Assembly: GCA_963707025.1 (NCBI GenBank)
Contig: CAVPOM010000018.1
Span: forward strand, 160,001 to 224,000
Length of the DNA: 64,000 nt
Direction of reading: 5' to 3'
DNA from: an uncultured Verrucomicrobiae bacterium
GTDB taxonomy: Bacteria; Verrucomicrobiota; Verrucomicrobiia; Limisphaerales; Palsa-1400
The notes under the pieces are model-generated. The model saw only the letters and a list, made by a program, of their open reading frames with translations. It was not told the DNA's origin and did no database searches. The position numbers and the translations under genes are program-made. Positions 7,077 to 62,478 of the stretch are shown one piece after another; position 1 is the stretch's first letter, and each line of letters begins with the position of its first letter.

Positions 7077-7084
7077 GACTTTAA

Positions 7085-7129: not shown

Positions 7130-7193
7130 ACGACAAACAAGGAGACTAGCAAACTTCTTTGCTCTTTGAACTGCAAACTTTAGACTGGCGGGG

Positions 7194-9092
7194 ATGAGTG
7201 ACATTGTTGGCATTGATTTGGGCACGACCAATTCGTTGATCGCCGGGGTGGATGCGGGCATCCCTTATGTCATCGCCGATGCGGAGGGACAGCGGCTGAC
7301 GCCTTCGGTGGTCCATTTTCCAGGAGGCGGCGCCGCGCCGCTGGTGGGCCGTCCGGCCGCGCGCCTGCGCGTGGCGCATCCGGCGCAAACGGTTTATTCC
7401 ATCAAACGTTTCATGGGGCGGCGCGGGGCGGAAATCCCGCGCGAAGAAATGCTCGTCACCTATGCGGTGCGCGGCGAAGGCGCCGGGCCGGTGACGGTGG
7501 AAATGGCAGGGCGGCGTTATACGCCCGAGGAAATTTCGGCGGAGATTTTGAAGAAGTTGAAAGCCGGCGCCGAAGCCGCCCTGGGCAAAACGATCAGCCG
7601 CGCCGTCATCACCGTGCCCGCCTATTTCAACGACGCGCAGCGCAACGCCACCAAACAAGCCGGCGAGCTGGCCGGTTTTGCCGTCGAACGCGTTCTCAAC
7701 GAGCCGACCGCGGCCGCCCTGGCCTACGGCTTGGGCAACCTGGCCGGGCCCGGCAAAATCGCGGTGTATGATTTGGGCGGCGGGACCTTTGATCTGTCCA
7801 TTTTGGAGATCAACGGCGGCGTTTTTCAGGTGCTGTCCACCAACGGCAACACGCGCCTGGGCGGCGATGATTTGGACAAGCGGCTGCTGGATTTCATCGT
7901 GGAAAAAATCAAGGCGGCTGGCGGCCCGGACGCCAGCGGCGATCTGCCCATGCTCTCCCGCATCCGCGAGACGGCCGAGGCGGTCAAAATCAGCCTGTCC
8001 ACCGCGGAATCCGCCGAGATCGCGCTGCCCTTTCTCACGGCGGATTTTCATTTTCATCGCACCCTGGCGCGGACGGAACTGGAAGACCTGACCGGCGACA
8101 TCATCGGGCGCACGCGCGAGCATTGCCTGCGCTCGCTGTCCGACGCCAAGCTCCGGCCCGCGGACCTGGACCAGGTCATCCTGGTGGGCGGCCAGACGCG
8201 CATGCCGCTGGTCCGCCGGATGGTGGCGGAAATTTTTGGCTGCGCCGAATTCGAGGAAAGCCGCGGGGATCTGCGCCTGGGGGCGGATTACCACCGCTCC
8301 GCCGGGCCGCGGCTGAACACCTCGCAGAATCCCGATGAGGCGGTGGCGCTGGGCGCGGCCATCCAGGCGGGCATTTTGGGCGGGGGCTTCAAGAATATGC
8401 TGCTGCTGGACGTGACCCCGCTGTCGCTGGGCCTGGAAACTTTCGGCGGCCTGATGAACGTCATCATTCCGCGCAACTCGACCATCCCGGTCAAAGCCGG
8501 GGAGCTGTTCACCACCGCGGTGGATTATCAGGCCAGCATGCTAATTCACGTCCTGCAGGGCGAGCGGGAACGGGCCCGAGACAATTGGAGCCTGGGCCGG
8601 TTTGATCTGGAATTCGAGCGCGCGGCCAAGGGGGTCGCACGCGTCGGGGTGCAATTTGAAATTGACGCCAGCGGCCTGCTCCATGTCCTGGCGCGCGACA
8701 CCAAAACGGGCCGGCAGAAGATGGTCGAGATGAAATCCGCCGTGGATGTCGCCGACGCCCAGGTGCAAAAAATGGTGGAGGAATCCGTGGCCCACGCCTG
8801 GGACGACCTGCAGGCGCGGCAATGGATCGAAGCCAAACTGCGCGCCGACGAAACCCTGGCCGCCACCCGCAAGGCTTTGGTGGAATGCGCCGGGGAAATT
8901 GAGGCGGATTACAAAAGCAAAGTGGAAGCCGCCGTGAAAGCCGTGGAAGATCAACTGGCAGTGGAACCAGGCGAACCGGCCGCCCTCAAATCCGCTTTGG
9001 CCTCGCTGGACGAAGTGACCAAGCCGCTGGCCGATTTGCTGATGGACAAAGCGCTGGACGCCATGCTGCGGCAGCGCGGGGTGATTAAATGA
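7194..9092 (+). CDS. Hsp70-family chaperone (HscA/DnaK-like paralog)
   Basis: GIDLGTTNS, TVPAYFND, NEPTAAALAYG, DLGGGTFD, LVGGQTRMP, NPDEAVALGAA. Confidence 0.93.
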   Translation: MSDIVGIDLGTTNSLIAGVDAGIPYVIADAEGQRLTPSVVHFPGGGAAPLVGRPAARLRVAHPAQTVYSIKRFMGRRGAEIPREEMLVTYAVRGEGAGPVTVEMAGRRYTPEEISAEILKKLKAGAEAALGKTISRAVITVPAYFNDAQRNATKQAGELAGFAVERVLNEPTAAALAYGLGNLAGPGKIAVYDLGGGTFDLSILEINGGVFQVLSTNGNTRLGGDDLDKRLLDFIVEKIKAAGGPDASGDLPMLSRIRETAEAVKISLSTAESAEIALPFLTADFHFHRTLARTELEDLTGDIIGRTREHCLRSLSDAKLRPADLDQVILVGGQTRMPLVRRMVAEIFGCAEFEESRGDLRLGADYHRSAGPRLNTSQNPDEAVALGAAIQAGILGGGFKNMLLLDVTPLSLGLETFGGLMNVIIPRNSTIPVKAGELFTTAVDYQASMLIHVLQGERERARDNWSLGRFDLEFERAAKGVARVGVQFEIDASGLLHVLARDTKTGRQKMVEMKSAVDVADAQVQKMVEESVAHAWDDLQARQWIEAKLRADETLAATRKALVECAGEIEADYKSKVEAAVKAVEDQLAVEPGEPAALKSALASLDEVTKPLADLLMDKALDAMLRQRGVIK

Positions 9093-46580: not shown

Positions 46581-49500
46581 TCACGGGCGGAGCTGGATGA
46601 GGAGGTCTTTGCTGGCGACGGTTTCGCCGACTTGGGCGAAGAGGGCCTGGACGGCGCCGTCGGAGCTGGCGTAGAGGGTGCTTTGCATTTTCATGGCTTC
46701 CAAGGTGAGGAGTTTGTCGCCTTTTTTCACCTTGCTGCCCACGCTGACGGCCAGGGCGGTGAGGAGGCCGGGAATGGGCGCGCCGATTTGCCAGGGGTCG
46801 GACGGGTCGGCCTTGGGACGGGTCCTGGCCTTGACCTGGGCGGTCTTGTCAAGTATGGAGGCCTCGCGGGTCATGCCGTTGAGTTCGAAGGTGACGATGC
46901 GGCGGCCATCCTTGTCCACCGCGCCCAGGTGGATGAGCTTGATGAAAAGGGTCTTGCCCGCCTCGATGTCCACGGAGATTTCCTCGCCGGGCTTGAGCCC
47001 GTAGAAAAAGGCGCTGGTGGGGAGGACGGCCAGGTCGCTGTAGTCGCGCTCGAATTTGGCGTATTCGGCGAAGACTTCGGGGTACATGAGATGGCTGTAG
47101 AGATCGTCCGGGGTGGCGTCGCGCTTGAGTTTGAGGGTGAGTTGGTCCTGGATTTTTTTGAGGTGGAGCGGCTTGAGCCTGGCGCCGGGACGGCCGCGAA
47201 TGGGTTGGCGGCGGCCGAGGACGACTTTTTGCAGGCGGCGGGGCCAGCCGCCCAGGGGCTGGCCGAGTTGGCCGCCGAGCATGTCAATAACAGAGGCGGG
47301 GAAGGGGACGCTGCCGGGCTCAAGATTGAGAAGGTCGGCGGGATTGATGCCCCGGCTGATGAGGAACATGGCCAGGTCGCCCACGACTTTGCTGCTGGGG
47401 GTGACTTTAACGATGTCGCCCAGAAGCTGGTTGACCTGGGCGTAGGTGCGGGCGATTTCGGGCCAGCGCTGGGCCAGGCCCATGCTGGCGGCTTGTTCTT
47501 TGAGGTTGGTGTATTGGCCGCCGGGCATTTCGTGGTCATAGACTTCGGCGCTGCCGCTGCGCGGGGCGGTGTCGAAGGGGGCGTAAGCCAGGCAAACTTT
47601 TTCCCAGTAATCGGAGAATTCGTTGAGGGCGGCCAGGTCCAGGCCGGTGTCGCGGGGGGTGTGGCGCAAGGCGGCGACCAGGGAGTTGAGGTTGGGCTGG
47701 CTGGTGGAACCGCTCATGGCGGCAATGGCCAGATCCACCACGTCCGCGCCCGCCTCGGCGGCTTTGAGGACGGAAGCGGCATTGACGCCGCTGGTGTCGT
47801 GAGTGTGGAAATGCAGGGGCAGGGCGATTTCCTCCTTGAGCGCCTTGACCAGGGTGTAGGCGGCATAGGGGCGGCACAAACCGGCCATGTCCTTGATGGC
47901 GAGGAAATGAGCGCCCATTTTTTCCAGTTGCCGGGCCAGCTTGACGTAGTATTTGAGGGAGTATTTGGCGCGGCGGGGATCATGGATGTCGCCGGTGTAG
48001 CAGATGGCGGCTTCGCAGATGGCGTGGGTTTGCCGGACCGCCTCGATGGCGACTTGGAGATTGGGGGTGTAGTTGAGGGAATCGAAGATGCGGAAGATAT
48101 CAATGCCGGAAGCCGCGGCATGTTTGACAAAGCCGGCGACGACGTTGTCGGGATAATTGGAATAGCCGACGGCGTTGGCGCCACGGAGCAGCATCTGGAA
48201 ACAGATGTTGGGGATTTTTTGGCGCAAGAGGCGGAGGCGGTCCCACGGGTCTTCGCGGAGGAAGCGCATGGCGGTGTCGAAGGTGGCGCCGCCCCACATT
48301 TCCAGGCTGAAGAGTTGCGGGGTGCGCCGGGCCAGGGCGTCGGCGATGGCGAGCATGTCGTAGGTGCGCAAGCGGGTGGCGAGGAGGGATTGGTGGGCGT
48401 CGCGGAAAGTGGTGTCGGTGACGAGGAGTCTTTTTTGGGCGAGGGTCCAGCGGGCGAAGCGGCGCGGCCCCAGTTGCAGGAGCAGTTGGCGGGTGCCGGG
48501 CGGGGGTGCTTGTTTGCGGTCGTGGGGCGGCGGAGTGACCGCAGGCAAGGGGGCCTGGAGGGACTGTCCCTTGGCCTGGGGGTTGCCGTTGACAATGACA
48601 TCGCCGAGGAAGGCGAGGAGTTTGGTGGCGCGGTCGCGGCGGGAGGCGAAGGCAAAGAGGCCGGGCGAGGTGTCAATCAGGTTGGTGGTGGCGCGACCGG
48701 AGCGGAATTCGGGGTGGGCGATGACGTTTTCGAGGAAGGGAATGTTAGTCTTGACGCCGCGGATGCGAAATTCGCGCAGGGCGCGGTCCATGCGCACCAA
48801 GGCGAGGTCGAAATCGCGCCCGAAGGCGGTGATCTTGACGAGGAGGGAATCGTAAAAGGGGGTGATGACCGCGCCGGCATAGCCCATGCCGCCGTCCAGG
48901 CGCACGCCATAGCCGCCGGTGGAGCGGTAGGTGAGGATCTTGCCGTAGTCAGGGGTGAATTTATTTTCCGGATCCTCGGTGGTGACGCGGCATTGCACGG
49001 CATAGCCGTGGCGGGGAATGTCGCGGCCGGGCGGCAGGTTGATTTCGGGGCTGTGGAGGGAGAGGCCCTGGGCGACGAGGATTTGCGAACGAACCAGGTC
49101 CACCCCGGTGACAACTTCGGTGACGGTGTGCTCGACCTGGATGCGTGGGTTGACTTCGATGAAGAACCATTGGCGGCGGTCGAGGTCATAGAGGAATTCG
49201 ACGGTGCCGGCATTGTCATACTGGACCGCGCGGCCCAGGCGGACGGCGGCCTGGCACAAGTCGCGCCGGACGGAATCGTCCAGGGCGAAGGCGGGGGCGA
49301 TTTCGATGACTTTCTGGTGGCGGCGCTGGACCGAACAATCCCGTTCGTGGAGGTGGACGACGTTGCCGTAGTGGTCGCCGAGAATCTGCACCTCGATGTG
49401 TTTGGCGCGGGGGATGTATTTTTCCAGGAAGACGGCGGGGTTGCCGAAGGCGCGGCCGGCTTCGTCGCGGGCTTCATCGAGGAGGCGGGCGAGGTCGGCG

Positions 49501-50102
49501 GGTTTATGCGCCACTCTCATGCCGCGGCCGCCGCCGCCGAAGGCCGCCTTAATGATGAGTGGAAAGCCGATTTGGCGGGCAATCCGGAGCGCCTGGGCGC
49601 GGCCGGCCACGGCCTGCTCCGTGCCGGGGAGGATGGGAACGTTGAGTTTTTGGGCGAGGGCGCGGGCGGCGGTTTTGTCGCCCATCATGGCCAGGATGTC
49701 CGGGCGCGGGCCGACGAATTGGATGCCGGCCTGGGCGCAAGCGCGGGCGAAGCCGGCGTTTTCGGCGAGGAATCCGTAGCCGGGATGGATGAGGTCCACT
49801 TGCCTTTCCTTGGCCAGGGCGACGATGCCCGGGATGTCGAGGTAAGCGCCGACGGGCCCTTGGTTTTCTCCGATGAGATAGGCTTCATCGGCCTTGAAGC
49901 GGTGGATGCTAAGGCGGTCTTCCTGGGCGTAAATGGCGACGGTGCGCAAACCCAATTCGGTGGCGGCGCGAAAAACGCGGATGGAAATTTCGCTGCGATT
50001 GGCCACAAGCAATTTTTTGAAGGAACGGCGCGGCGGGGGCGCGCCGGCCCCGGCGGCGGGAGCGTCGGACGGTTCTGCGGCATGGAGCGGATGGCTCATC
50101 AT
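46581..50102 (-). CDS. pyc: Pyruvate carboxylase
   Basis: KKLLVANRSEI, HPGYGFLAEN, ERDCSVQRRHQK, RDAHQS, AIKDMAG, HTHDTSG, EAMKM biotin site. Confidence 0.97.
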   Translation of the reverse strand: MMSHPLHAAEPSDAPAAGAGAPPPRRSFKKLLVANRSEISIRVFRAATELGLRTVAIYAQEDRLSIHRFKADEAYLIGENQGPVGAYLDIPGIVALAKERQVDLIHPGYGFLAENAGFARACAQAGIQFVGPRPDILAMMGDKTAARALAQKLNVPILPGTEQAVAGRAQALRIARQIGFPLIIKAAFGGGGRGMRVAHKPADLARLLDEARDEAGRAFGNPAVFLEKYIPRAKHIEVQILGDHYGNVVHLHERDCSVQRRHQKVIEIAPAFALDDSVRRDLCQAAVRLGRAVQYDNAGTVEFLYDLDRRQWFFIEVNPRIQVEHTVTEVVTGVDLVRSQILVAQGLSLHSPEINLPPGRDIPRHGYAVQCRVTTEDPENKFTPDYGKILTYRSTGGYGVRLDGGMGYAGAVITPFYDSLLVKITAFGRDFDLALVRMDRALREFRIRGVKTNIPFLENVIAHPEFRSGRATTNLIDTSPGLFAFASRRDRATKLLAFLGDVIVNGNPQAKGQSLQAPLPAVTPPPHDRKQAPPPGTRQLLLQLGPRRFARWTLAQKRLLVTDTTFRDAHQSLLATRLRTYDMLAIADALARRTPQLFSLEMWGGATFDTAMRFLREDPWDRLRLLRQKIPNICFQMLLRGANAVGYSNYPDNVVAGFVKHAAASGIDIFRIFDSLNYTPNLQVAIEAVRQTHAICEAAICYTGDIHDPRRAKYSLKYYVKLARQLEKMGAHFLAIKDMAGLCRPYAAYTLVKALKEEIALPLHFHTHDTSGVNAASVLKAAEAGADVVDLAIAAMSGSTSQPNLNSLVAALRHTPRDTGLDLAALNEFSDYWEKVCLAYAPFDTAPRSGSAEVYDHEMPGGQYTNLKEQAASMGLAQRWPEIARTYAQVNQLLGDIVKVTPSSKVVGDLAMFLISRGINPADLLNLEPGSVPFPASVIDMLGGQLGQPLGGWPRRLQKVVLGRRQPIRGRPGARLKPLHLKKIQDQLTLKLKRDATPDDLYSHLMYPEVFAEYAKFERDYSDLAVLPTSAFFYGLKPGEEISVDIEAGKTLFIKLIHLGAVDKDGRRIVTFELNGMTREASILDKTAQVKARTRPKADPSDPWQIGAPIPGLLTALAVSVGSKVKKGDKLLTLEAMKMQSTLYASSDGAVQALFAQVGETVASKDLLIQLRP

Positions 50103-50207
50103 TGGGGCGACGGTATAGCGGGCGGCGGCGCGGGTGGAAAGAGCAAAGTGGAAGGGCGGGGCGGTTTTGGGTTGAAAAGGAGGAGGGGGTTGTAGTTTGA
50201 TTCTGTG

Positions 50208-51779
50208 ATGAAATACCGCCTTGCCAAACTTTGGCTGATTCCCTGTTTCGCCGCCGCCGTTTTTTCGGCGGACGGGCAGGACCATGGGGCGATGGTCAAT
50301 GCCCTGCTGCAACTCAAGGCCGATCAACCCGGGTCGGTGATCAACCGCCACCAGTACGGACAGTTTGCCGAACATCTTGGGCACGGCATTTATGGCGGAT
50401 TGTGGGTGGGGGAGAATTCGACCATCCCCAACACGCGCGGCATCCGCAGTGACGTGGTGGCGGCGCTGAAGAAGATGGGCATCCCGGTGCTGCGCTGGCC
50501 GGGGGGCTGTTTCGCCGACGAATATCATTGGCGGGACGGCATCGGCCCGCGGGAGAAGCGGCCCAAAATGATCAACACCACCTGGGGCGGGGTGGTGGAG
50601 GTCAACGCCTTCGGCACCCACGAGTTCATGGATTTGTGCGGGCAATTGGGCTGCGACGCTTATGTCTGCGGCAATGTGGGCAGCGGCACGCCGCAGGAAA
50701 TGATGGAGTGGGTGGAATACATGACCTCGGACACCGACTCGACCATCGCCAATCAGCGCCGGCAAAACGGGCGGGAGAAGGCGTGGAAGCTGGCCTATTT
50801 CGGCGTGGGCAACGAGAACTGGGGCTGCGGCGGGAACATGCGGCCGGAGTATTACGCGGACCTTTTCCGGCGCTACAACACGTTTGTCAAAAATTACGGG
50901 GCCAACAAACCCTACCGCATCGCCAGCGGCGCGGATGGGGGCGACTTGAACTGGACGACGGTGCTGATGAACCAGGCCGGCTCGCAGATGGACGGCCTCT
51001 CGGTGCATAATTACACCCTGCCCTCGGGCAGTTGGACCGGCCCCAAAGGGTCCGCGACCGACTTTGGCGAGGAGGCCTGGATCACCCAGTTATCCAGGAC
51101 GCTGGGGATGGACGGAATTCTTTCCCGGCACTCGGCCATTATGGACCGCACCGACCCGAAGAAACGGGTCGGGCTGATCGTGGATGAATGGGGGTCCTGG
51201 TATGATGTGGAGCCGGGCACCAACCCGGGCTTTCTTTACCAGCAAAACACCCTGCGCGACGCGCTGCTGGCGGCGCTCAATTTCAACATTTTTCACAGGC
51301 ACGCCGACCGCGTGCCCATGGCCAACATCGCGCAGATGGTCAACGTCCTCCAGTCCATGGTATTGACAGACGGCCCGAAGATGACGGTCACGCCCACCTA
51401 CTGGGTTTTTGAAATGTACAAAGTCCACCAGGACGCGACTTATCTGCCCGTGGCGGTGGTGACGCCCGATTACAAGTTTGGCGACCGGACCATCCCGATG
51501 GTGGACGCGACGGCCTCGCGCGACGCCGCGGGCAAGACGCATCTTTCGCTGGTGAATGTGGACCCGCACGCCGCCGTCATGGTCTCGTGCGAATTGCGCG
51601 GCCTGGCGGCCAAATCGGTGTCCGGCCGCATCCTGACGGCGCCGGAAATAAATTCTCACAACACTTTCGATGCGCCCAACGCCGTCGCGCCGCAGCCTTT
51701 CATTGGCGCGTCCCTGGCGGAGGGCAGGCTTTCGGTGAAACTGCCCGCCAAGTCGGTGGTGGTGCTGGAATTGCTTTAA
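50208..51779 (+). CDS. Alpha-L-arabinofuranosidase (GH51)
   Basis: [50 protein letters not shown]. Confidence 0.94.
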
Positions 51780-52106: not shown

Positions 52107-52218
52107 AATTACCAATGACAAGTACTCGATGGCAAATTCTCAATTATAGGACGGGCGCAATACCTTATTGGGTTCTCAGGATTGAAAATTGCCAATTGAA
52201 AATTTGTCATTGGTAATT
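52107..52218. repeat. AT-rich palindromic element with heptamer-periodic arms
   Basis: Perfect 15-bp inverted ends AATTACCAATGACAA / TTGTCATTGGTAATT, pairing continues imperfectly inward. Confidence 0.8.
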
Positions 52219-53348
52219 TATTGACCACAGACCCGGTGGTAAAGGGCCTGGTAGCGCGGGACGATGATGGCGGCGGAAAATAAATCGCGCGCGCGGCTTT
52301 GCGCGGCGAGGCCCAGTTGGCGGCGGCGGGCCGGGTCGCGAATCAATTCTTCCACCGAGGCGGCCATCGCCGCGACGTCGCCAAAGGGGACCAGAATTCC
52401 GCTGACGTTGTGCTCGACCACTTCCGGGATGCCGCCGACGCGGCTGGAGACGCTCGGACAGGCAAAACACATCGCTTCCAAAATGCTGAGGCAAAAGGTT
52501 TCCAGCTCCGAGGTGAAGAGTCCCAGGTCGGCGGCTTGGAGGTAGTCCTCAATGTCGCTGACTTTTTCGCGCACGATCACCCGATCCTGCAAAGCCATCC
52601 GCCGCACTTGTCCCTGGAAAGGGGCAAAGCTGTCTCCGGCCAAAATGAGCAGCTTGAAGGCATCGCGCGGGCGAATGCGCGCGGCGGCCTCCAGCAAGAG
52701 ATCAATGCGCTTGGGCGCGCGCAGGTTGGAGGAATGGAACAGCAACACTTCGCCGCCCAGGCCCAGTTCACGCCGCACCTCGTCGCGCGAACGCCGGGCG
52801 GGGCGCGGCTCAAAAAAATTATGTATGACATCAATGGGCTGCGTCACCCCCAGCACCTCCTGCGTCTCCCGCCGCAGGTAGGCGGACACGGTGGTGATGG
52901 CGTCCGAGCAGGCCAGGGCATGGCGGATGGCCGGGGCATAACCGGGATCGCGCCCCAGCAAGGTGGTGTCCGTGCCGTGCAGGGTGGTCACCAGGCGCGG
53001 CTGTTGCCGGGGCGGCAGCATGTCGCGCGCCAGGATGGCGGCGGTGGCGTGAGGCACGGCGTAATGGACATGGAGCACGTCCAGTTGGTGGTCGCGGCTG
53101 ACCTCGGCCATTTTTACCGAGAGCGGCAAGGTGTAGTCGGGGTATTTGAACAGCCCGTAATCGTTGATCACCACGGGATGGAAAAACAGGCGCGGCGCCT
53201 CCGCCGGGAGGCGGAAGGGGCGTTCGTAGCCGATGAAATGCACTTCCTCGCCGCGCCGGGCCAGTTGCTCGCCCAGCGCCGAGGCCAGAATTCCGCTCCC
53301 GCCGACCGAGGGATAACAGGTGATGCCGATTTTCAGGGGGCGGGCCAC
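52218..53348 (-). CDS. bshA: N-acetyl-alpha-D-glucosaminyl L-malate synthase (GT4)
   Basis: LKIGITCYPSVGGSG, LHVHYAVPHA, TTLHGTD, SNLRAPKR, ETFCLSILEAM; GTG start next to the bshB stop. Confidence 0.9.
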   Translation of the reverse strand: MARPLKIGITCYPSVGGSGILASALGEQLARRGEEVHFIGYERPFRLPAEAPRLFFHPVVINDYGLFKYPDYTLPLSVKMAEVSRDHQLDVLHVHYAVPHATAAILARDMLPPRQQPRLVTTLHGTDTTLLGRDPGYAPAIRHALACSDAITTVSAYLRRETQEVLGVTQPIDVIHNFFEPRPARRSRDEVRRELGLGGEVLLFHSSNLRAPKRIDLLLEAAARIRPRDAFKLLILAGDSFAPFQGQVRRMALQDRVIVREKVSDIEDYLQAADLGLFTSELETFCLSILEAMCFACPSVSSRVGGIPEVVEHNVSGILVPFGDVAAMAASVEELIRDPARRRQLGLAAQSRARDLFSAAIIVPRYQALYHRVCGQ

Positions 53349-53349
53349 G

Positions 53350-54087
53350 TCAAAAGCGCCGGGCGCCGCGGCTGAGTTGCGCAAGCGAGCCGGCGACCAC
53401 GGGATCACTGGGAAACAAGGCAATGGCATGGCCAACCCCGGCCCGCAATCCCTGAAACCGCGCGCGGGCCAGTTGGAGTTCCACGTAGGGCCGGGCGCGA
53501 AGTTGGGAAGCGTGCGCGGCCATCGCCGCCGTCCAAGCCGCGATAATTTCCGGGGCGGAAACGTCCATCAGCACGGGCGTGATATCGGGAGGCTCCGCTT
53601 CGGGAGTGACGGCGTAGAAGAAAAGCTGGTCAACGGCGTGGGGCGTCTGGCGCCGCAATTCCTTCAAGCCCCCGTAGCGGGCCAGCCGCGCGGCGTCGCG
53701 CACCAGGCGTCCGAGCCGCGCGTGATCGGGGTGCTGGTTTTCCACCACGCTGGGCGCGAGCACGATGGCGGGCCGGGCGCGCCGGATCAGGGCCGCAAGC
53801 TGGATGGCGTGGGCGGCGCGCATTTCCAGGCGCGCATCGCCGTCCAGCGTGATGAATTGAAGAGTGGCGCCGAGGAGGGCGGCGGCTCTTTTCGCCTCGG
53901 CCGCGCGTTGCGCGGGCGTGCCGCAGGTGCCGGCTTCGCCGCGGGAACAGATGACAAAATGCGCGGGCCGGCCGGCGCGGGTCTCGCAGGCGACGACGGC
54001 TCCGCAGGCAAATTCGATGTCGTCGGGATGCGCGCCAAAGGCCAGGAGCGGCGCGGGTTCAGGAGGGGATTTCAGTGTAGGCTTCAT
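53350..54087 (-). CDS. bshB1: PIG-L family deacetylase, BshB1-like
   Basis: LAFGAHPDDIE, SRGEAGT, HPDH; adjacent to bshA. Confidence 0.8.
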   Translation of the reverse strand: MKPTLKSPPEPAPLLAFGAHPDDIEFACGAVVACETRAGRPAHFVICSRGEAGTCGTPAQRAAEAKRAAALLGATLQFITLDGDARLEMRAAHAIQLAALIRRARPAIVLAPSVVENQHPDHARLGRLVRDAARLARYGGLKELRRQTPHAVDQLFFYAVTPEAEPPDITPVLMDVSAPEIIAAWTAAMAAHASQLRARPYVELQLARARFQGLRAGVGHAIALFPSDPVVAGSLAQLSRGARRF

Positions 54088-54835
54088 CGGAGCGGTCAAT
54101 GGGATCGCGTTTGACAAAAGTTATTTCCGGCGCATCGGCGGGGCAAAGATACGCCTGTTCGCCCAGGCCGGCAATGTAATGCGTGCAGTGGATGACCGAT
54201 TGCATCCAGCGCAGCCGGGAGTCGCGCGCCGGGCTGATCTGTTCCTTGCCGAAATCGGTCCGGGGCAGGGTAATGAAGGAATTCCCGCCCTGGTGCAGGG
54301 TCAGGGCGCCGTTGACGCAGCGGGCGCGCACCAGTTCGCCCGCGTAGGGCACGTCCACAAAGAATTCCGCCACGTCGCAGGCGGCGCGCCGGAAGGCCGG
54401 ATCGCCCGAGCGCGCCACGCGCACGCCCGCCAGCAGGCCCATGAGCCGGTACATCTCCAGGCAAAAATCGGCGGGGTTGGCGGCGTCCGTATTCGCGAAG
54501 GCCTCCACCCAGCGCGGGTCCACGAAGGGCGGCAGTTGCAGGGCGGTCCGGTCGCGCCAGCCGGCGGCGATGCGCTTGGCGAAAAGAGGCGAAAACTTGC
54601 GCTGCCACTTGTTTTCGCAGGCGAAATTGAGGCGCAAGGCTTCGCCGGTTTTGCGATGGCGCAGGATGGTGGCGGTCTCGCGCGGGTCGTGGTCGCTGTC
54701 GTGATAAAAGAAAACGATCTCCCCGCCCATTTCCGCCTGGAGCCGCCGGGCGGTCTGGATTTTGGCAAAAAGGAAGCGGCGCGGAAAGAATCCGCAGGGC
54801 TGCTGGCCAAAACAAATAATGGGCGATGTCGTCAT
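54059..54835 (-). CDS. Short (258 aa) BshC-like putative cysteine-adding enzyme
   Basis: GQQ...K, DHDxxE, SP...R...Q and YIAGLGEQAY match BshC motifs in the right order; operonic with bshB and bshA. Confidence 0.7.
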   Translation of the reverse strand: MTTSPIICFGQQPCGFFPRRFLFAKIQTARRLQAEMGGEIVFFYHDSDHDPRETATILRHRKTGEALRLNFACENKWQRKFSPLFAKRIAAGWRDRTALQLPPFVDPRWVEAFANTDAANPADFCLEMYRLMGLLAGVRVARSGDPAFRRAACDVAEFFVDVPYAGELVRARCVNGALTLHQGGNSFITLPRTDFGKEQISPARDSRLRWMQSVIHCTHYIAGLGEQAYLCPADAPEITFVKRDPIDRSDEAYTEIPS

Positions 54836-56550
54836 GGAGCGGGGCGCGCCTCTTCCTTTTTAGCATGCACGGCCTGAATCGCCAGACTGAACAGGACGCA
54901 GGCGGCGCAGCCGATGAGGTTGTACCAGAGATAACTGATTTCTTGAGGGGTATTCTTGAGATGGAAATAGAAGTATAACACCAGCCCTTCCGCCAGCACC
55001 GCCCCCCAAAAAACGGCCGTCCCATGCACCCATTTGACGAAAAAGGCGACGAGAAACAATCCCAGGACCACGCCGTAAAAGACGGAACCGACGATGTTGA
55101 CGGCCTGGATCAGGTTCTCCGCCAGGTGGGCATAGAGGGCGAAGCCCAGGGCCACCAATCCCCACATGGCCGTGAACCATCTTGAGGCCTTGACGTAATG
55201 CGCGTCGCCCGCCTCGCGTTTGAGGAGGTGCCGGTAAAAATCCACCGAGGTCGTCGAGCCCAGCGCGCTCAATTCCGCCGCCTTGGAGGACAGGGCCGCG
55301 GCAAAAAAGGCCGCGACCAGCAAACCAATCACGCCATGCGGCAGATGGGCCAGGATGAAAGTGATGAACACGTAGTCGCCATCGTTGGTTTGGGCGTGGA
55401 CATCGGCCTGGCGCAGCGCGGCCCGGGCTTCGGCGCGGATGGCTTCGCTTTGGTCGTGCGCGGCCAGGGCCTGGGCGCGGGCGGCGGTGGCGGCGGAGAG
55501 GTCGTGGCGGTGACGGGCCTCGAGCCAGGCGCGGAGGGATTGCTCCTTTTGCAAATAAACGGCCGCAAATTTTTGCTCGACAGCGTGAAATTTTGCGCCG
55601 TCATGCGCGGCCGCGGCCTGCCAGGAGGATTGGTTGAAAAAAACGGGCGGCGGCTCGAATTGGTAGAAGACAAACATGAGGACCCCCAGCCACAGGATGA
55701 GGAACTGCATGGGGATTTTGCAAACGGCGTTAAACATCAGGCCCAGCTTGCATTCCCGGGTGGAGGCTCCTGAGATATAACGCTGCACCTGGGATTGGTC
55801 GGTCCCGAAGTAAGAGAGCATGAGGCACATTCCCCCGAACATGCCGGACCAGAAGGTGTAGCGGCGGTGCAGATCGGGTGAAAAATCAACGGCGTTCATT
55901 TTATGGAACGTCCCCGCCAGGGACAACGTGTCGGTGCAGGTGAGCTGGGCGGGCAGCCGCGCCAGCAGAATGACCAAGGCCGTCACCATGCCGCCGAAGA
56001 TGACCATAATCTGGTATTTCTGCGTCACGCTGACCGCTTCATTGCCGCCGATGACGGTGTAAAGGATGACGAGCAGTCCGCTGAAGATGATGGTCAGGCC
56101 CAGGGGCCAGCCGAAGACGGTGGAAAGCACGATGGCCGGGGCGTAAATGGTGATGCCGGCGCCCAAGCCGCGTTGCAGGAGAAACAGCCCCGCGCCGAGC
56201 AGGCGGGTTTTGGCATCGAAGCGCCGGCCGAGAAACTCGTAGGCGGTGTAAACGTTCAAGCGGCGGAACATGGGGAGGAAAAACGCCGCCACGACGATCA
56301 AGGCCAGGGGCATGGCAAAATAATTCTGCACAAAAGTCAGGCCGTCCTCATAGCCCTGCCCCGGCACGGAGAGGAAGGTGATGGCGCTGGCCTGGGTGGC
56401 CATGACGGAAAGCCCGATGGTGACCCAGCCGGTGGTGCCGCTGCCTTTGAGGTAGCCGCTCAAGCCGCGCTGGCCGCGCGTCCGCCAGACACCGTAGGCG
56501 GCGATCCCGAGCATCGTGACGAACAGAACCAGGTAATCCAGCGGGTTCAT
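54832..56550 (-). CDS. Sodium:solute symporter (SSS family)
   Basis: GLSVMATQASAITFLSVPG, AYEFLGRRFD, YFGTDQSQVQRY, FAAALSS. Confidence 0.93.
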   Translation of the reverse strand: MNPLDYLVLFVTMLGIAAYGVWRTRGQRGLSGYLKGSGTTGWVTIGLSVMATQASAITFLSVPGQGYEDGLTFVQNYFAMPLALIVVAAFFLPMFRRLNVYTAYEFLGRRFDAKTRLLGAGLFLLQRGLGAGITIYAPAIVLSTVFGWPLGLTIIFSGLLVILYTVIGGNEAVSVTQKYQIMVIFGGMVTALVILLARLPAQLTCTDTLSLAGTFHKMNAVDFSPDLHRRYTFWSGMFGGMCLMLSYFGTDQSQVQRYISGASTRECKLGLMFNAVCKIPMQFLILWLGVLMFVFYQFEPPPVFFNQSSWQAAAAHDGAKFHAVEQKFAAVYLQKEQSLRAWLEARHRHDLSAATAARAQALAAHDQSEAIRAEARAALRQADVHAQTNDGDYVFITFILAHLPHGVIGLLVAAFFAAALSSKAAELSALGSTTSVDFYRHLLKREAGDAHYVKASRWFTAMWGLVALGFALYAHLAENLIQAVNIVGSVFYGVVLGLFLVAFFVKWVHGTAVFWGAVLAEGLVLYFYFHLKNTPQEISYLWYNLIGCAACVLFSLAIQAVHAKKEEARPAP

Positions 56551-56717
56551 GAGTAAACCCGGGTCAACACCGCCAGGAAAACCACCCAGGCGGCAAAGGC
56601 GGCCACCACAAAAAAGTAAACCGCCCGCCAGGTGCGGAAGCCGGGCAGGCCGGTGCCCTTTTCGTCAATACTAGATTCAGGCGCGCCCGGCGGGGCTGGA
56701 GTTCCCGGCGACTTCAT
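56547..56717 (-). CDS. 56-aa single-TM protein upstream of the SSS transporter (absent from ORF track)
   Basis: MKSPGTPAPPGAPESSIDEKGTGLPGFRTWRAVYFFVVAAFAAWVVFLAVLTRVYS*; ATGA overlaps at both ends. Confidence 0.8.
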   Translation of the reverse strand: MKSPGTPAPPGAPESSIDEKGTGLPGFRTWRAVYFFVVAAFAAWVVFLAVLTRVYS

Positions 56718-59239
56718 TTTCCAAGCGAGACCAGATTGGCAAACAGCCGGTAGGCTCCCGGCACGCCGTCGGGCAATTGCCGGAACCAGGAGAGAGCGGT
56801 ATAGGTGAAATAACCCCTGCCGTATTGCGCCACGAGCAGGCTGCCCTTGAGCGGCGCCTCGCCAGGGTCATGGCAGGCGAGCAACGGGGTGAAATGCTCA
56901 TCCCACTGGCTGGCAAAGTAAGCGCCGCGCTCCTGCACCCAGCCGTCGAAATCCGCCGGGACAATTTTGTTGGGCGTGTTGAAAACCGGATGATCGGGCG
57001 CCAGCAGCGTCATCTCGGCCGTCTCGTCCGTCACCCGTTCCCCGGAGACGGCAAGGCTGTAAGGGGCAAGCTGCATCACGCTCGGCCCTCTCTGGCTCGG
57101 ACGGTTGTAAAGAACAATGACATTGCCGCCGTTGGTCGCGAAATCGAACAACCCGGTCAAATGCGGCGCGAGGTCGGTGCGGACGTTGAAGGCGCGAATG
57201 CCCGCCACCACCGCATCCAGACCCTGTAGTTTCTCCGGCGTCAAATCCGCGCCGGTCAGCGGTGTCACCGCGCAGCCCATCCGCGCCAGCGCCTCGGCCA
57301 CCTCGTCGCCCGCGCCGGGAATGTAACCGACTTTGCGGGCGCGCATGGCCATTTCGAGGCTCAAGGCTTTGAGACGCGCGGGCGGCTGGAGCAACTGGGG
57401 CGGGATATGCTCGTAGTGTTCTTTAAGCTCCACCCGGCCAGTGTGCCAGGTCGCGCCACCCACATTCGCAACCGCCAGAAACTCCCCCGTGCCGGTCTGG
57501 GTCGGCGCGGTGATGGTGAAGGTAAAGCGCGCGCTCCCGCCTGAATTGCCCAGGGAAAAAGGTTGGGCTGCCGGCGTCACCTTCCAACCCGCCGGCGCCT
57601 CCAGTCGCAGCGTGCCCCTGGCATGGTCCCGCGCCGCCGTGACTTCCACCTCCGCGTCCCGCGCCGCGCCCGGCGGAAAAAGTCCTACATCGTCCACAAA
57701 TTTCAGCGACACCGGCGGGATGACCCGCAATGGAAGATGGCTCTCTCTTTGCACCGGCTCGTCGGTCACGGAGAATTCTTCGCCGTTCACCGCAAAGACC
57801 TGTTCAATGGGAAAAACGGGGGGGTTCTCCGGCCGGCCGATCAGCGAAACGTCGTCCACCCGGAAACGCCCGGCGGTGCCCTCTTCGCGCAACCAGTAAG
57901 GCTGGGTAATCGGCGTGTTGGTTGGGAGGACGCTGTTCAACTCGTGCATAATGAACCCGCCGGACTCCAAATTCTTCGGCCCAGGTCCGATTATTTCCTT
58001 GGTCCTGCCAGGATAGCGCACTCCGAGCCAGCGCACCGGCACGTCGCTGCGCAGGGTCACCTTAGTGCGCTGTGGCAGCGTTTCGCCCGGCACCACTTCG
58101 GCCTGCGCGATAGTCGTTTCCACCTCAAGCCCAAGGCACTCCTGCAAAATGTGATCCAATTGATGGCGCTTTTCATCCAGCACGATGTCCGCAGGCAGGC
58201 CGGCCAGAAGGTGATGGATTTTAATCAGGGCGGGCACGCTCGCCGCCGGGTGCGCCGGGTCGAAGTGCGCGATCACTTCATCGGTCATCGCCCCGATCTC
58301 CTTGCCGCCCGGGACGCGGCCCCAGGTTGTGTCCACCCCGTCAAATATATCGTTGGTCGCCGGTTCCCCGGCCAGGAAGGTAAAACCGGCGCTGCCCGCG
58401 CCCCCGCGCCCGCCCCTGCCGAAATTGCCAAGGCCCTGCGTTTTGTGCATGGAACGGCTGCGGCCGGCGATGACCCCGAATTCCGCGGGCACCTCCATCG
58501 TCAGCGAGCGTCCGCGGTTTTGGAGAAGCCGTTTGGGCTGCCAGGGTTTTAATTCGCCCAGTTGTTCGGGAAAAGCCTTGGGGTCGCCCGCCAGTTTGAA
58601 GGCTTCGCCCGCCAGTATGGCTGAGGCGGTGTGATGCCCGTGCTGGCCGCCGCCGCCATTGGTGGAAAAGTTGGCGACGACCACGTCCGGCCGGAAGGTG
58701 CGCATGACCCGCACAACGTCGGACAACACTTCTTGCTCGCCCCAGAATTTGAACGTCTCCCGGTAATCCTTGGAAAACCCAAAATCCTTGGCCCGGGTAA
58801 AAAACTGCTGGCCGCCGTCAATGCGCCGCGCCGCCAGCAATTCCTGGGTGCGGATCACGCCCAGCTCGTCCCCGATCTCCGGTCCGAGCACGTTCTGCCC
58901 GCCGTCGCCGCGCGTGACCGAGAGATAAGCGGTGCGACAATAGCGGCCCCTGGCCAGAAAGGCGATCAGGGTCGAGTCTTCGTCGTCCGGATGCGCCGCA
59001 ACCAAGAGCAGGCTTCCCATCTGGCGAAAACTGCGCAGTTCCTGGAGAATGTCCGGAGAAGGATCCGCGCCAGCCAGGGTGAGGAACGGCAAAAGGATGA
59101 AGGCAAAAGGAAGAAGTCCGCCCAGAAAAAGAGGCCCGCGGCGGCGGGCCTGTAAGGCGCGCGCCGCCCCGCGGAACCGGGGCGCAGGGCTTGGGCAGAG
59201 GAGAGGCAACGGCATCATCACGGCATCAGGTGCATTCAC
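56714..59239 (-). CDS. Large exported PIG-L family deacetylase with Ig-like and class I glutamine amidotransferase-like C-terminal domains
   Basis: Hydrophobic N-terminal segment; AAHPDDED, TRGDGGQN, DFGFSK, HGHH; GWVQERG, FRQLPDGVPGAYRLFANL; start uncertain. Confidence 0.85.
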   Translation of the reverse strand: MNAPDAVMMPLPLLCPSPAPRFRGAARALQARRRGPLFLGGLLPFAFILLPFLTLAGADPSPDILQELRSFRQMGSLLLVAAHPDDEDSTLIAFLARGRYCRTAYLSVTRGDGGQNVLGPEIGDELGVIRTQELLAARRIDGGQQFFTRAKDFGFSKDYRETFKFWGEQEVLSDVVRVMRTFRPDVVVANFSTNGGGGQHGHHTASAILAGEAFKLAGDPKAFPEQLGELKPWQPKRLLQNRGRSLTMEVPAEFGVIAGRSRSMHKTQGLGNFGRGGRGGAGSAGFTFLAGEPATNDIFDGVDTTWGRVPGGKEIGAMTDEVIAHFDPAHPAASVPALIKIHHLLAGLPADIVLDEKRHQLDHILQECLGLEVETTIAQAEVVPGETLPQRTKVTLRSDVPVRWLGVRYPGRTKEIIGPGPKNLESGGFIMHELNSVLPTNTPITQPYWLREEGTAGRFRVDDVSLIGRPENPPVFPIEQVFAVNGEEFSVTDEPVQRESHLPLRVIPPVSLKFVDDVGLFPPGAARDAEVEVTAARDHARGTLRLEAPAGWKVTPAAQPFSLGNSGGSARFTFTITAPTQTGTGEFLAVANVGGATWHTGRVELKEHYEHIPPQLLQPPARLKALSLEMAMRARKVGYIPGAGDEVAEALARMGCAVTPLTGADLTPEKLQGLDAVVAGIRAFNVRTDLAPHLTGLFDFATNGGNVIVLYNRPSQRGPSVMQLAPYSLAVSGERVTDETAEMTLLAPDHPVFNTPNKIVPADFDGWVQERGAYFASQWDEHFTPLLACHDPGEAPLKGSLLVAQYGRGYFTYTALSWFRQLPDGVPGAYRLFANLVSLGK

Positions 59240-59283: not shown

Positions 59284-59394
59284 CTTCGTGCCATTGGCAA
59301 TCAATTTCAAAAGCGAGAACGGACACTGGCACGCTGACCCTGGCAGGGCAAGATCTGCCGTTTGACTTTTTCCGGGAGAGTCGGATGTTATGCC

Positions 59395-59745
59395 ATGAAA
59401 ACTAAACTATTGAGATTGGTTTTGTTGGCCTCCTTGGCGGGGCTGTTCGCGGCGGGATGCACTGTGTATGTCAGGCCGCCGGCGGCCCAAGTGGCTGTCA
59501 GTGCGCCAGGCGAGGTGGTGGTGGAGGGAGCTCCGCCGCCCGCCCCTCCCTACGTGGATGTGGTGACGCTCAGTCCAGGCCCGGATTTCATCTGGATTGG
59601 CGGAGCTTGGTTCTGGGGAGGCGGTCGTTGGCAGTGGGAACGAGGTCACTGGGCCCGTCCGCCGCATCGCGGCGCGGTTTGGGTGGCTCACCATTACGAG
59701 TATCGCAACGGACGGCATGTATTTGTCCGGGGTGGATGGAGATAA
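59395..59745 (+). CDS. YXWGXW-repeat lipoprotein
   Basis: Lipobox-like FAAGC; WIGGAWFW, WERGHW, WVAHHY, VRGGW. Confidence 0.85.
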   Translation: MKTKLLRLVLLASLAGLFAAGCTVYVRPPAAQVAVSAPGEVVVEGAPPPAPPYVDVVTLSPGPDFIWIGGAWFWGGGRWQWERGHWARPPHRGAVWVAHHYEYRNGRHVFVRGGWR

Positions 59746-59924: not shown

Positions 59925-60842
59925 TCAGTGCAGGCCGGCGATCACTTCCTGGTTCATCTTGAAGTAGGGAGTGCCCGGCCCCTCCACCTGAATGGCGAGT
60001 TGGCTGGATTGGTTGGCGGCGGCGACGGCGCCATCGCGGTCGCCTTCTTTGGCCAGGATTTTCGCCTTGAGATGGAGCAATTGATAGGAGATGGGCGGAT
60101 GGGTCGCCAGCCCCATGTTGACCCACAGCAAGGCCTGAGTCAGGTCCTTGGTGTGGTCGAAGTAAAAGGTCGCGGCCCGGAGGTAGGTTTCGGGCTGCTT
60201 TTTGGCCGGGGAATCCATGGAGGCCTGAATGCGGACCAGGAGATCGCTGACGATGCTGACTTCCACTTTCACCGGAACGCGCACCCGGTCCCAAATCAAA
60301 TTGATGGTGGCCGAATCGTCCTGGAGATCGTTGACATCAATGGTAAAAGTCTCGACGGGCGGATCAATCTTGACCGGCGTCACTTTGAAGCGCGCGACAT
60401 CCTTCCTGGGGTCATAACCGTCTTTGCCCCAAAGTCCGGCATCTTTGTTCAGGATGACGGTCCAGGCCTTTTCGTCCGGGATGGTGTAGAGGCCGTATTC
60501 GCCTGCGGGAACTTCCTGGCCGTCGGCCCCGCCTAATTTTACCGGAGTGCTGAACGAGATCTTGGTGGAGGCGTTGTCGCCGGTACGCCAGAGATCGTTG
60601 TAGGGAACGATGCCGGCGAAAACGGCATGATGCCTCCTGCTGGGCCGGGAATAAACGATTTTAATCTCGGTCAATCCGACGCGTTGAATATTGGTGCAAG
60701 CCGGGCTGGCCTGGGGAAGCTCTGGAAACCGGATGGGGGGAGTGGCGGGCTGCATGGCCGCCGGGGTCTGCGCCGGCACGCCCCCGGCCAGAGCCAGCCC
60801 GGAGACGAAGAGGAGCGCGCAGGGCAATTTTGCGGGATTCAT
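59925..60842 (-). CDS. DUF2911-domain secreted protein with helical C-terminus
   Basis: ASP, YSRP, VPYNDLWRTGDN, VPAGEYGLYTIP. Confidence 0.85.
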   Translation of the reverse strand: MNPAKLPCALLFVSGLALAGGVPAQTPAAMQPATPPIRFPELPQASPACTNIQRVGLTEIKIVYSRPSRRHHAVFAGIVPYNDLWRTGDNASTKISFSTPVKLGGADGQEVPAGEYGLYTIPDEKAWTVILNKDAGLWGKDGYDPRKDVARFKVTPVKIDPPVETFTIDVNDLQDDSATINLIWDRVRVPVKVEVSIVSDLLVRIQASMDSPAKKQPETYLRAATFYFDHTKDLTQALLWVNMGLATHPPISYQLLHLKAKILAKEGDRDGAVAAANQSSQLAIQVEGPGTPYFKMNQEVIAGLH

Positions 60843-60935: not shown

Positions 60936-61475
60936 TTAAGGGGCATTGCTAAACGCAACGGAATACTGCGTCTTTTCCCACTGGATCTTGATCACGCCAC
61001 CGGAACCCTCCGCGGCCACGGAAAGGGTGAGTTGGTCCATCTGGGTATCCAACGGCGCTTTCTTCAAGTCCACCCGGGCCAAATCGTTCTTTTCATCCAC
61101 CGGAATTCCCCACTTGCCGGTGGTCTTGCTGATGGCCAGCTTGGAGGTGCCGGATTCCGATGGAACCATGTAGAGAGTATAAGTGCCGGCGGGCACCGTC
61201 GTGCCGCCCAGAACGATGCCTTTTTCGCAGACCAGGGTGGTGGCTTGATCCGCTCCCAGCCGCCAGGCCTTGTCCCACGGCACCAGAGATCCCCAGACTT
61301 TGCGCACCACATCGGTGCCGGGTTTCTTGCTGAAAGGCCGTCCGTAAGTAATCTTGACAGCGTTGCCACCGATGGTGGCGCTGACCGTATCATGAGGGCT
61401 GACTCCGCCCAGAGCGGGCAATACCGTGGCCGCGCTGAGCGCTGTGACAATAAATGCGTGTTTTAACATTTTCAT
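60936..61475 (-). CDS. DUF2911-domain secreted protein
   Basis: SP, YGRP, LVPWDKAWRLGADQAT, VPAGTYTLY. Confidence 0.85.
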   Translation of the reverse strand: MKMLKHAFIVTALSAATVLPALGGVSPHDTVSATIGGNAVKITYGRPFSKKPGTDVVRKVWGSLVPWDKAWRLGADQATTLVCEKGIVLGGTTVPAGTYTLYMVPSESGTSKLAISKTTGKWGIPVDEKNDLARVDLKKAPLDTQMDQLTLSVAAEGSGGVIKIQWEKTQYSVAFSNAP

Positions 61476-61617: not shown

Positions 61618-62478
61618 TCAGCCGGCCAGGCCGGACAGATAAGCGAGGATCAATCGGGGCAGATCGTCGCTGTAGCCGCCTTCCAGAACGCTGAAGGACG
61701 GAACCGCCAGCCGGCGCACGGTTTGACCCAGCCAATGAAAGTCCTCCTCTTCCAGGGTGCCCTCGGCCAGGGGATCGCCGCGATAGGCGTCGAAGCCGGC
61801 GGAAACGGCCACCAGGCCGGGCTGGTATTTTTTCAGCCGGGCCACGGCCTTTTCCAAAATGGCGCGGTACTCCGGGCGCGGGGTCCCAGGCGGGACTGGG
61901 AAATTGAAACAATTGCCGCCGCGATCGGCCTGGCCGGAGCCGGGATAGCAGGGATGCTGGTGGATGGAAAGGAAGGCGCAACCGGGTTGGTCAAGAAGAA
62001 TATCTTCCGTGCCGTTGCCGTGGTGGACATCAAAATCGAAGACGGCCACGCGCTGGCAGCCGGCGGCGCGGGCCTCCAGGGCGGCGATGGCGATGGAGTT
62101 GAGGTAGCAAAAGCCCATGGCGCGGTCCCGGGTGGCGTGGTGGCCGGGCGGACGCATCAGGCTGAAGGCCATCTCGCCCGCGCGGGCCGATTGCAGGGCT
62201 TGCAAAGCGCCGCCCACGGCGCGGCGGGCGTGGGCGGCAATTTGGGGATAAGCAGGGGTGTCGGCATCAATGTCGAATGGGATGTCCAGCCGCTGGAGGT
62301 GTTCCGGGGAGTGGGCGCGGAGGAGGGAGGCTTCCTCGACGGGAAGCGGTTCGCCCCAGGCCAGGCGGAGCGCGTCCTGGGATTTGAGGGCAGCAAGGGC
62401 GGCGAAGATGCGTCCGGGGCCTTCGGGATGGCCGGGGGCCGAGAATTCGGCGCAACGTATGTCAGTTATAATTTTCAT
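61618..62478 (-). CDS. Histone deacetylase-family amidohydrolase
   Basis: HPEGPGR, RPPGHHA, MGFC, DFDVHHGNGT, SAGFDAY, LEGGY. Confidence 0.93.
   Translation of the reverse strand: MKIITDIRCAEFSAPGHPEGPGRIFAALAALKSQDALRLAWGEPLPVEEASLLRAHSPEHLQRLDIPFDIDADTPAYPQIAAHARRAVGGALQALQSARAGEMAFSLMRPPGHHATRDRAMGFCYLNSIAIAALEARAAGCQRVAVFDFDVHHGNGTEDILLDQPGCAFLSIHQHPCYPGSGQADRGGNCFNFPVPPGTPRPEYRAILEKAVARLKKYQPGLVAVSAGFDAYRGDPLAEGTLEEEDFHWLGQTVRRLAVPSFSVLEGGYSDDLPRLILAYLSGLAG

Follow-up and report, generated by a model that had tools for sequence, protein, structure and literature searches.

Introduction

Does a verrucomicrobium synthesize bacillithiol, and why should the genes for such a thiol be lined up with a predicted exported hydrolase and a sodium symporter? 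The question is raised by 64,000 nucleotides (nt) of DNA from an uncultured Verrucomicrobiae bacterium of the Palsa-1400 lineage (GenBank assembly GCA_963707025.1, contig CAVPOM010000018.1, positions 160,001 to 224,000, forward strand). This whole stretch is termed the window, and all numbering refers to it. A row of genes, all open reading frames (ORFs) of which are on the minus strand, encodes a long PIG-L/LmbE metallo-amidohydrolase, a 56 amino acid (aa) membrane peptide, a sodium:solute symporter (SSS), a 258-aa protein termed mini-BshC, a BshB-like deacetylase, and BshA. A reading made from the letters alone (the sequence-only reading) had proposed a six-gene, bacillithiol-like operon. 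We conclude that the row is a real, widespread and undescribed variant of the bacillithiol pathway and that mini-BshC, judged by its modelled fold and its distribution, is BshC-like.

Hiras et al. (2018) placed Verrucomicrobia among the lineages without a documented or predicted low-molecular-weight thiol (PMC6282198); the supplementary files searched for this article contain no mention of Verrucomicrobi, Opitut or Coraliomargarita. A 2025 paper on NmbA lists Verrucomicrobiota without the bacillithiol pathway (PMC12719100, footnote of supplementary file 2), and homologues were accepted there when similar in length and covered by > 80%. A BshC of 258 aa cannot meet such criteria, therefore the pathway may be undercounted. 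Neither a short BshC nor a PIG-L/symporter module nor a PIG-L/lyase locus was found in searches of a mostly open-access full-text literature, read as listings and abstract beginnings; nor did the papers searched contain a bacillithiol salvage route via an exported hydrolase and a symporter. The finding would close a gap in the distribution of thiols that has been pointed out in print.

Distribution and Gene Order

One even sample of 301 Verrucomicrobiota genomes was examined. BshA scored over cut-off in 22 of them; 20 of these encode mini-BshC, two a canonical BshC, none both and none neither. All 279 genomes lacking BshA also lack mini-BshC and canonical BshC. The long PIG-L and DUF2911, a family encoded directly upstream, each occur in 21 genomes, all with BshA, namely the 20 with mini-BshC and one with canonical BshC, and in none of the other 279. 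Co-occurrence of the PIG-L module with bsh genes, the check which the sequence-only reading had set itself, is thereby borne out and its interpretation supported. The association also holds without physical linkage: in two genomes the long PIG-L is kept elsewhere (G180, G213), and G247, a genome with canonical BshC, has a separate locus for PIG-L, symporter and DUF2911.

From at least 575 confirmed loci in the genome collection the best 80 were compared for gene order, a selection which is biased to close relatives and in which many loci ended at contig edges. The symporter is present in 78, BshB in 78, BshA in 76, and the long PIG-L in 65 of these loci. Where the contig left room, 46 of 51 loci show the order PIG-L, SSS, mini-BshC, BshB, BshA, and DUF2911 is located directly upstream of PIG-L in 52 of 52. 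The 56-aa peptide is present in all 65 loci with PIG-L and SSS adjacent (within 600 nt). Because the order recurs in 46/51 loci and the peptide in 65/65, the row is not due to chance. The six genes of the sequence-only reading are real, yet the row is larger, since two DUF2911 genes upstream had been missed. The conserved unit is seven or eight genes. Genes, conservation and co-occurrence are established.

The supposed verrucomicrobial host is confirmed by its nearest relatives, which are titled Verrucomicrobiota; in the closest locus (L001) the 258-aa protein is 93% identical and the downstream neighbours are the same. The row extends beyond this phylum. A record titled 'Cyanobacteria bacterium SZAS-4' carries it entirely, DUF2911 included (L054:3614-11656). 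Among 41 genomes around this record (G301 and relatives) mini-BshC and BshA are present in ten, the same ten in both cases. This suggests a transfer between phyla. In the ESM Atlas most named module members are placed in Bacteroidota. The possible undercount of the pathway may comprise 20 of the 301 phylum genomes, the SZAS-4 lineage and one archaeal-type contig described below.

In the two genomes with canonical BshC a gene for an S-adenosylmethionine (SAM) methyltransferase is positioned directly 5' of bshC-bshB-bshA (L081:672-4007, L082:723-4510). It is possibly an N-methylase of the NmbA type. Named relatives of the canonical BshC from these two loci are titled Lentisphaeria.

Mini-BshC, a Half-Size BshC Homologue

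The 258-aa protein (54059-54835, minus strand) had been labelled BshC-like, a label which no family model supports. Searches against Pfam and NCBIfam, TIGR03998 and PF10079 included, yielded no significant match, ten relatives of the protein gave no BshC match either, and a TIGR03998 BshC was not found in the host genome, which is 88% complete. Comparisons with the PDB by sequence and profile and with plasmids by sequence produced nothing credible; a SUMO protease matched twice in the PDB (E 0.2), which was dismissed as chance. The family is large: of 7487 candidates comparable in length 6689 proved to be relatives, the top 120 of them 72-91% identical and, where named, 'hypothetical'. A profile search of a library clustered at 50% returned 260 matches, mostly fragments, with a few full-length members at 31-43%.

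Fold and profile comparisons, in contrast, show a structural BshC homologue. An AF2 model calculated from 129 sequences has a predicted local distance difference test score (pLDDT) of 95.3, and its best Foldseek match is BshC from Bacillus subtilis (4WBD, E 8.3e-10). The same structure tops 48,161 chains in VIA-align with Z 20.2, a root mean square deviation of 2.7, 240 aligned residues spanning 81-518 of the chain, and 15% identity; the runner-up, class I LysRS, reaches Z 14.5 and all others remain below 9. ESM Atlas features of mini-BshC point to BshC Rossmann-domain clusters (0.91). Aligned by hhalign with a profile of 114 canonical BshC sequences of at least 495 aa, out of 120 listed, residues 6-232 match 87-359 (probability 95.7, E 8.5e-9). 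An identity as class I aminoacyl-tRNA synthetase was rejected in view of the lower Z and the absence of signature motifs; the HIGH and KMSKS motifs were not found in the mini-BshC sequence.

The residue comparison was confined to four blocks without gaps, which were anchored manually where both proteins have the same motifs, and to BshC positions conserved in at least 95%. Mini-BshC keeps 15 of 25 such near-invariant positions, among them GQQ, K106, DHD, E140, S328, R334, G350, E353, Y356, and R377. Absent are the N-terminal 80 residues of BshC, a 38-residue insertion and the coiled coil (PF24850), the longest predicted helix of mini-BshC having 17 residues. In BshC this coiled coil serves dimerization (PMC5790435). 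Going by the model, mini-BshC is almost certainly a BshC homologue in fold. It is filed as a homologue, not as a family member, because the family models fail and the coiled coil is absent. Reconstitution of the BshC reaction was still outstanding according to a 2018 review (PMC5790435). A natural minimal BshC shows which parts are dispensable and offers a simpler enzyme for studying this unsolved reaction.

BshA and BshC homologues have been reported in Asgard archaea (PMC7278568). On a metagenome contig whose genes include archaeal types (L121; Alba, GatB, Rpp14/Pop5) there is a divergent mini-BshC with 39% identity (5801-6595 of that contig, plus strand), tail-to-tail with a BshB1-like gene (6468-7313, minus strand) which at 155.1 bits scores below cut-off. 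Within the 14.6 kb of this contig bshA, a long PIG-L and a symporter were not found.

BshA and the BshB-like Protein

The last gene of the row (52218-53348, minus strand) encodes 376 aa from a GTG start. Its product scores 383.6 bits with the BshA model TIGR03999 (cut-off 273.7) and matches the PDB BshA 5D00 at E 1e-83. Membership in this family of N-acetylglucosamine (GlcNAc)-malate synthases is established. The sequence-only reading had suggested scoring all three Bsh enzymes with family models; BshA passes, the BshB-like protein stays below the BshB1 cut-off, and the BshC model does not match at all.

The BshB-like gene (53350-54087, minus strand) adjoins bshA and encodes a predicted cytoplasmic PIG-L deacetylase of 245 aa from ATG. 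By sequence its best PDB matches are TT1542, 2IXD and the GlcNAc-malate deacetylase 6P2T, and its metal motifs AHPDD and HPDH align to 1UAN and 2IXD. BshB1 scores were discarded as a pathway marker because matches below cut-off occur in 79 of the 301 phylum genomes.

The Long PIG-L, the Membrane Peptide, the Symporter and DUF2911

The long PIG-L gene (56714-59239, minus strand) encodes 841 aa from GTG; the entry in the protein collection (P0392) has 834 aa, which fits an ATG seven codons later. The PIG-L domain is detected at residues 78-209 (PF02585, 55.9 bits, gathering score 28.2). Its metal ligands H83, D85, D86, E87, H200, and H203, set in the motifs AHPDDE and H200-G201-x-H203, show at least 95% conservation among 65 sequences. 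According to the model (pLDDT 89.7) the protein consists of the PIG-L domain, a helical linker, a pair of beta-sandwich domains and, at the C-terminus, an alpha/beta domain. MshB, BC1534 and STM3548 match single domains only in fold, the catalytic domain matches diacetylchitobiose deacetylases as well, and a solved structure covering the whole protein was not found (best query TM-score 0.25). The known thiol enzymes of this superfamily are distant: the protein scores 51.6 with Mca (TIGR03446, cut-off 277.15), 22.5 with BshB1 (cut-off 182.5), far under the cut-off with MshB, and without any match to TIGR04000. The N-terminus varies in sequence, and nearly all orthologues listed share a hydrophobic core accompanied by a basic stretch and by small residues. 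The protein is predicted to be exported.

The 56-aa single-pass peptide (56547-56717, minus strand) combines a G-L/V-P-G..W-R-x-V-Y-like motif with a hydrophobic helix and has no significant family match in Pfam or NCBIfam. It is likely a partner of the symporter. The latter (54832-56550, minus strand, 572 aa; PF00474) scores 214.1 bits with the SSS superfamily model TIGR00813 (cut-off 184) and below the cut-offs of all named subfamilies listed; a close characterised relative was not found in the NCBIfam search. DUF2911 occurs twice on the minus strand, in a short form of 179 aa (60936-61475; PF11138, 125.9 bits) and a long form of 305 aa with a C-terminal extension (59925-60842; 160.6 bits), each far above the cut-off of 27 and each with a signal-peptide-like N-terminus. 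By sequence, DUF2911 has no match in the PDB, and the literature listings contain one paper in which the family is mentioned.

Plasmid Relatives as a Clue to the Substrate

The long PIG-L matches 32 plasmid records, 22 of them at both ends. These 22 represent 11 genera and comprise 21 Alphaproteobacteria and one Bacillus. In every one of the 22 an argininosuccinate-lyase-like gene is located within 5 kb of PIG-L, as determined by comparing coordinates by hand. In seven annotated plasmid regions the lyase gene is accompanied by genes for a ROK regulator, an ATP-binding cassette (ABC) importer and a sugar kinase; nagB is additionally present in Loktanella and a gene for a NagK-like kinase in Bacillus. 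Of seven further lyase loci, all devoid of the long PIG-L, six retain a sugar ABC importer; nagB, a SIS-domain gene and a pair of other PIG-L genes each occur in one locus, whereas the context of the Haladaptatus locus is unrelated. Of the 14 annotated regions examined, 3 contain nagB or a SIS-domain gene. In the plasmid loci L083-L090, L114-L118 and L120 the lyase, annotated 'argH', is seen with a sugar ABC importer, a sugar kinase, a long PIG-L and sometimes nagB.

Lyases of this class cleave O- or N-succino groups to fumarate (PMC9706529). Malate bound via its hydroxyl is an O-succino group. GlcNAc-malate and bacillithiol are both acyl-glucosamines with a group releasable as fumarate. The plasmid gene context would thus point separately to a glucosamine (GlcN)-malate substrate. 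An N-succinyl-type glucosamine adduct would fit the lyase as well, and enzymes that are 30% identical may have diverged in specificity. In the 2025 survey a complete bacillithiol pathway was not found in Pseudomonadota (PMC12719100), therefore the plasmid hosts would be consumers. Their loci are candidates for the catabolism of bacillithiol or GlcN-malate in non-producers. The genome of the window host has no close orthologue of the plasmid-type lyase, the best matches being 27-34%, and catabolism to fumarate was rejected for this host on this ground; the absence fits salvage over catabolism.

The same relatives bear on what is imported. The symporter might carry the cysteine or S-conjugate half, or intact bacillithiol from neighbours, with PIG-L detoxifying conjugates outside the cytoplasm. 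Bca, after all, releases a Cys-S-conjugate along with GlcN-malate (PMC5790435), the symporter is without a close characterised relative, and one of the plasmid PIG-L loci has a gene for cysteine dioxygenase nearby. On the other hand, lyase, kinase and nagB next to PIG-L relatives concern the amino-sugar half, and lyase loci devoid of the long PIG-L retain sugar-type ABC import. We regard import of the cysteine half or of the whole thiol as improbable.

Proposed Synthesis and Periplasmic Salvage

For the row as a whole we favour bacillithiol synthesis combined with periplasmic salvage of the GlcN-malate core, to which we give an even chance. The reactions, the export and the transported solute are what we infer. 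First, BshA would join UDP-GlcNAc and L-malate; in view of its family this is very probable. Second, the BshB-like enzyme would deacetylate GlcNAc-malate, for which position and motif argue almost as strongly. Third, mini-BshC would attach a group to GlcN-malate, and cysteine is the reasonably likely one. Fourth, the long PIG-L would cut the amide of periplasmic bacillithiol, of its disulfide, of S-conjugates or of GlcNAc-malate, similar to the equivalent cut which Bca and Mca make in the cytoplasm; that its substrate is an N-acyl-GlcN-malate we consider fairly probable. Fifth, the symporter, likely with the 56-aa peptide, would import GlcN-malate and so feed mini-BshC directly, a step with slightly better than even prospects. 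The DUF2911 proteins are putative periplasmic helpers of the last two steps.

Several observations weigh against this proposal. Concerning distribution, 16 of 19 non-self carriers belong to one family. Since the carriers are mostly kin, the co-occurrence counts are not independent and denote a tight association, not many independent events. The upstream module is missing beside mini-BshC in two loci (L002, L077) and 6 kb away in another (L060). Kinship of the carriers, a patchy cassette which looks as if mobile, and the fold resemblance of the catalytic PIG-L domain to diacetylchitobiose deacetylases would also agree with an unrelated amino-sugar scavenging module, e.g., for chitin or peptidoglycan fragments, that was co-transferred with the bsh genes as a cassette. 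This is very improbable, as the long PIG-L and DUF2911 are absent from all 279 BshA-less genomes and the module persists when unlinked and when accompanied by a canonical BshC. Export of the long PIG-L is judged from hydropathy and by eye. Its plasmid relatives share only 30-42% identity with it, Aminobacter accounts for 9 of the 22 records, and most of the proteins are without a signal peptide, which fits import first and cleavage thereafter. The plasmid lyase itself scores above the ArgH cut-off.

Within mini-BshC, 10 of the 25 near-invariant BshC positions are altered (G95, G99, P100, Y102, T103, P127, W130 to F, P335, Q338, and P343). P497 and Q502-E503-R504 from the BshC C-terminus have no counterpart by sequence; they are among eight further near-invariant positions which lie outside the blocks. 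The mini-BshC family has its own invariants, R20, H45, D46, S47, W210, C217, and H219. Furthermore, thiol redox partners were searched for in five carriers, the host genome (88% complete) and four others (98-100%): YpdA, YtxJ and BrxA/B (DUF1094) scored over cut-off in none of the five (TIGR04018, TIGR04019, PF06491). Scanning the host genome with bacilliredoxin motifs brought up two unconvincing frames. Because BshC invariants are altered and these partners were not found, a variant product stays a live rival. Mini-BshC would then attach another amino acid or an acyl group instead of cysteine to GlcN-malate, and the product would be an N-acyl-GlcN-malate that is no redox buffer, e.g., a solute of the periplasm or a ligand for metals which PIG-L and symporter turn over; we think this unlikely. 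Against it, mini-BshC and canonical BshC substitute exactly for each other beside BshA, and in G247 the PIG-L/SSS/DUF2911 module accompanies a canonical BshC. Glutathione synthetase likewise was over cut-off in none of the five carriers, which leaves room for a thiol role.

YpdA-like domains below cut-off (137 and 149 bits) were observed in ORFs of about 770 aa in two genomes (G180:C1:102181-102951, G294:C1:5017041-5017820). Fused disulfide reductases are possible.

The deacetylase of the salvage proposal meets difficulties, too. The BshB-like protein scores 128.1 bits with TIGR04001 under a curated cut-off of 182.5, and such sub-cut-off matches, found in 79 of 301 genomes, are unspecific. The gene is absent from the row in G309, G325 and G346, where the best BshB1 matches elsewhere are weak (E 3e-23 to 3e-12); completeness is not given for these three genomes, and they possess other PIG-L genes. 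A metagenome set of 80 loci, 48 with room, contains 34 with BshA and without BshB, many of them near-identical, and 13 with both. In this variant mini-bshC is directly followed by bshA (L043, L100, L101 and the 34 metagenome loci among L122-L173). Could the periplasmic step then be part of synthesis, so that GlcNAc-malate leaves the cytoplasm, loses its acetyl group to the long PIG-L and returns as GlcN-malate for mini-BshC, which would make bshB dispensable? The bshB-less rows do retain PIG-L, SSS, mini-BshC and BshA (L043, G309, G325), and the metagenome loci and the weak BshB1 matches of the three genomes agree with it. Nevertheless bshB is present in 78 of the 80 genome loci and in all 20 sampled carriers, the three bshB-less genomes hold other PIG-L genes, and the row has no exporter. 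We give this rival a small chance.

A wider scheme may be drawn tentatively, and we consider it rather doubtful as a whole. In an extracytoplasmic bacillithiol cycle, the thiol or a precursor of it would travel through the periplasm of producers with a minimal BshC, be cleaved there and be taken up again as GlcN-malate, this being the sole deacetylation in bshB-less lineages; non-producers, Alphaproteobacteria and others, would eat bacillithiol by means of a cytoplasmic relative of the hydrolase and a mislabelled fumarate lyase. If so, communities in soil and water would have GlcN-malate as a common currency, and the unsolved BshC reaction would be revealed by mini-BshC as its pared-down enzyme.

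Junctions and Flanking Genes

Re-reading the DNA confirmed the six ORFs and all five junctions as claimed. Three ATGA overlaps (56714-56717, 56547-56550, 54832-54835) are followed by a 29-nt overlap between mini-BshC and bshB (54059-54087) and a gap of 1 nt before bshA (TGA-C-GTG, position 53349). These overlaps suggest translational coupling and co-transcription of the row. The G+C content of the operon is 61-64%, similar to the remaining window.

A gene on the plus strand (59362-59745) for a WXXGXW-repeat protein of 127 aa with a lipoprotein-like N-terminus is located between the DUF2911 genes and PIG-L. It occurs in none of 80 related loci, therefore it is a local insertion, which probably splits the transcript in the window. 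With the same count of 0/80 this gene, the upstream histone-deacetylase-family gene (61618-62253, minus strand), an epimerase and pyrG are ruled out as members of the unit. Downstream, a GH51 arabinofuranosidase (50205-51779, plus strand; 3/80 loci) and a gene that is pyruvate-carboxylase-like by sequence (46581-50100, minus strand; 1/80) are excluded as well.

Comparison With Known Systems

Periplasmic glutathione salvage operates by gamma-glutamyl transpeptidase and an importer. The resemblance to the row is an analogy only, i.e., a thiol is cut outside the cytoplasm and the pieces are imported; thiol, enzyme and transporter class differ and there is no homology.

Closer at hand are Bca (BshB2), Mca and MshB, which share with the long PIG-L the catalytic domain with HPDD and a second histidine motif. 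Bca cleaves conjugates to Cys-S-conjugates and GlcN-malate (PMC5790435), and the chemistry proposed here would equal that of Bca and Mca, GlcN-malate being released from a conjugate. Unlike all three, the long PIG-L has about 800 aa, is multi-domain and is predicted to be exported.

Mini-BshC has a Rossmann-type core in common with class I aminoacyl-tRNA synthetases (LysRS1 1IRX, Z 14.5) and MshC (3C8Z, Z 7.6), yet BshC is clearly the better match. With BshC from B. subtilis (4WBD; TIGR03998, PF10079 and PF24850) it is alike in fold over 240 of 258 residues and shares the motifs GQQ, K, DHD..E, S..R, G..E..Y, and R. It differs in its length of 258 instead of about 540 aa, in being without the dimer-forming coiled coil, and in the altered GP, Y102 and W130.

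The bacillithiol pathway BshA-BshB1/B2-BshC of B. subtilis, Chlorobi and Bacteroidota (PMC5790435, PMC6282198) is represented in the row by BshA together with a BshB1-like and a BshC-fold protein. In contrast to that pathway, BshC is half-size, BshB scores below cut-off or is lost, and YpdA and bacilliredoxins were not found in the five carriers; the phylum, moreover, is one listed without the pathway, and the bsh genes are joined in one row with a predicted exported hydrolase, a membrane peptide, a symporter and DUF2911.

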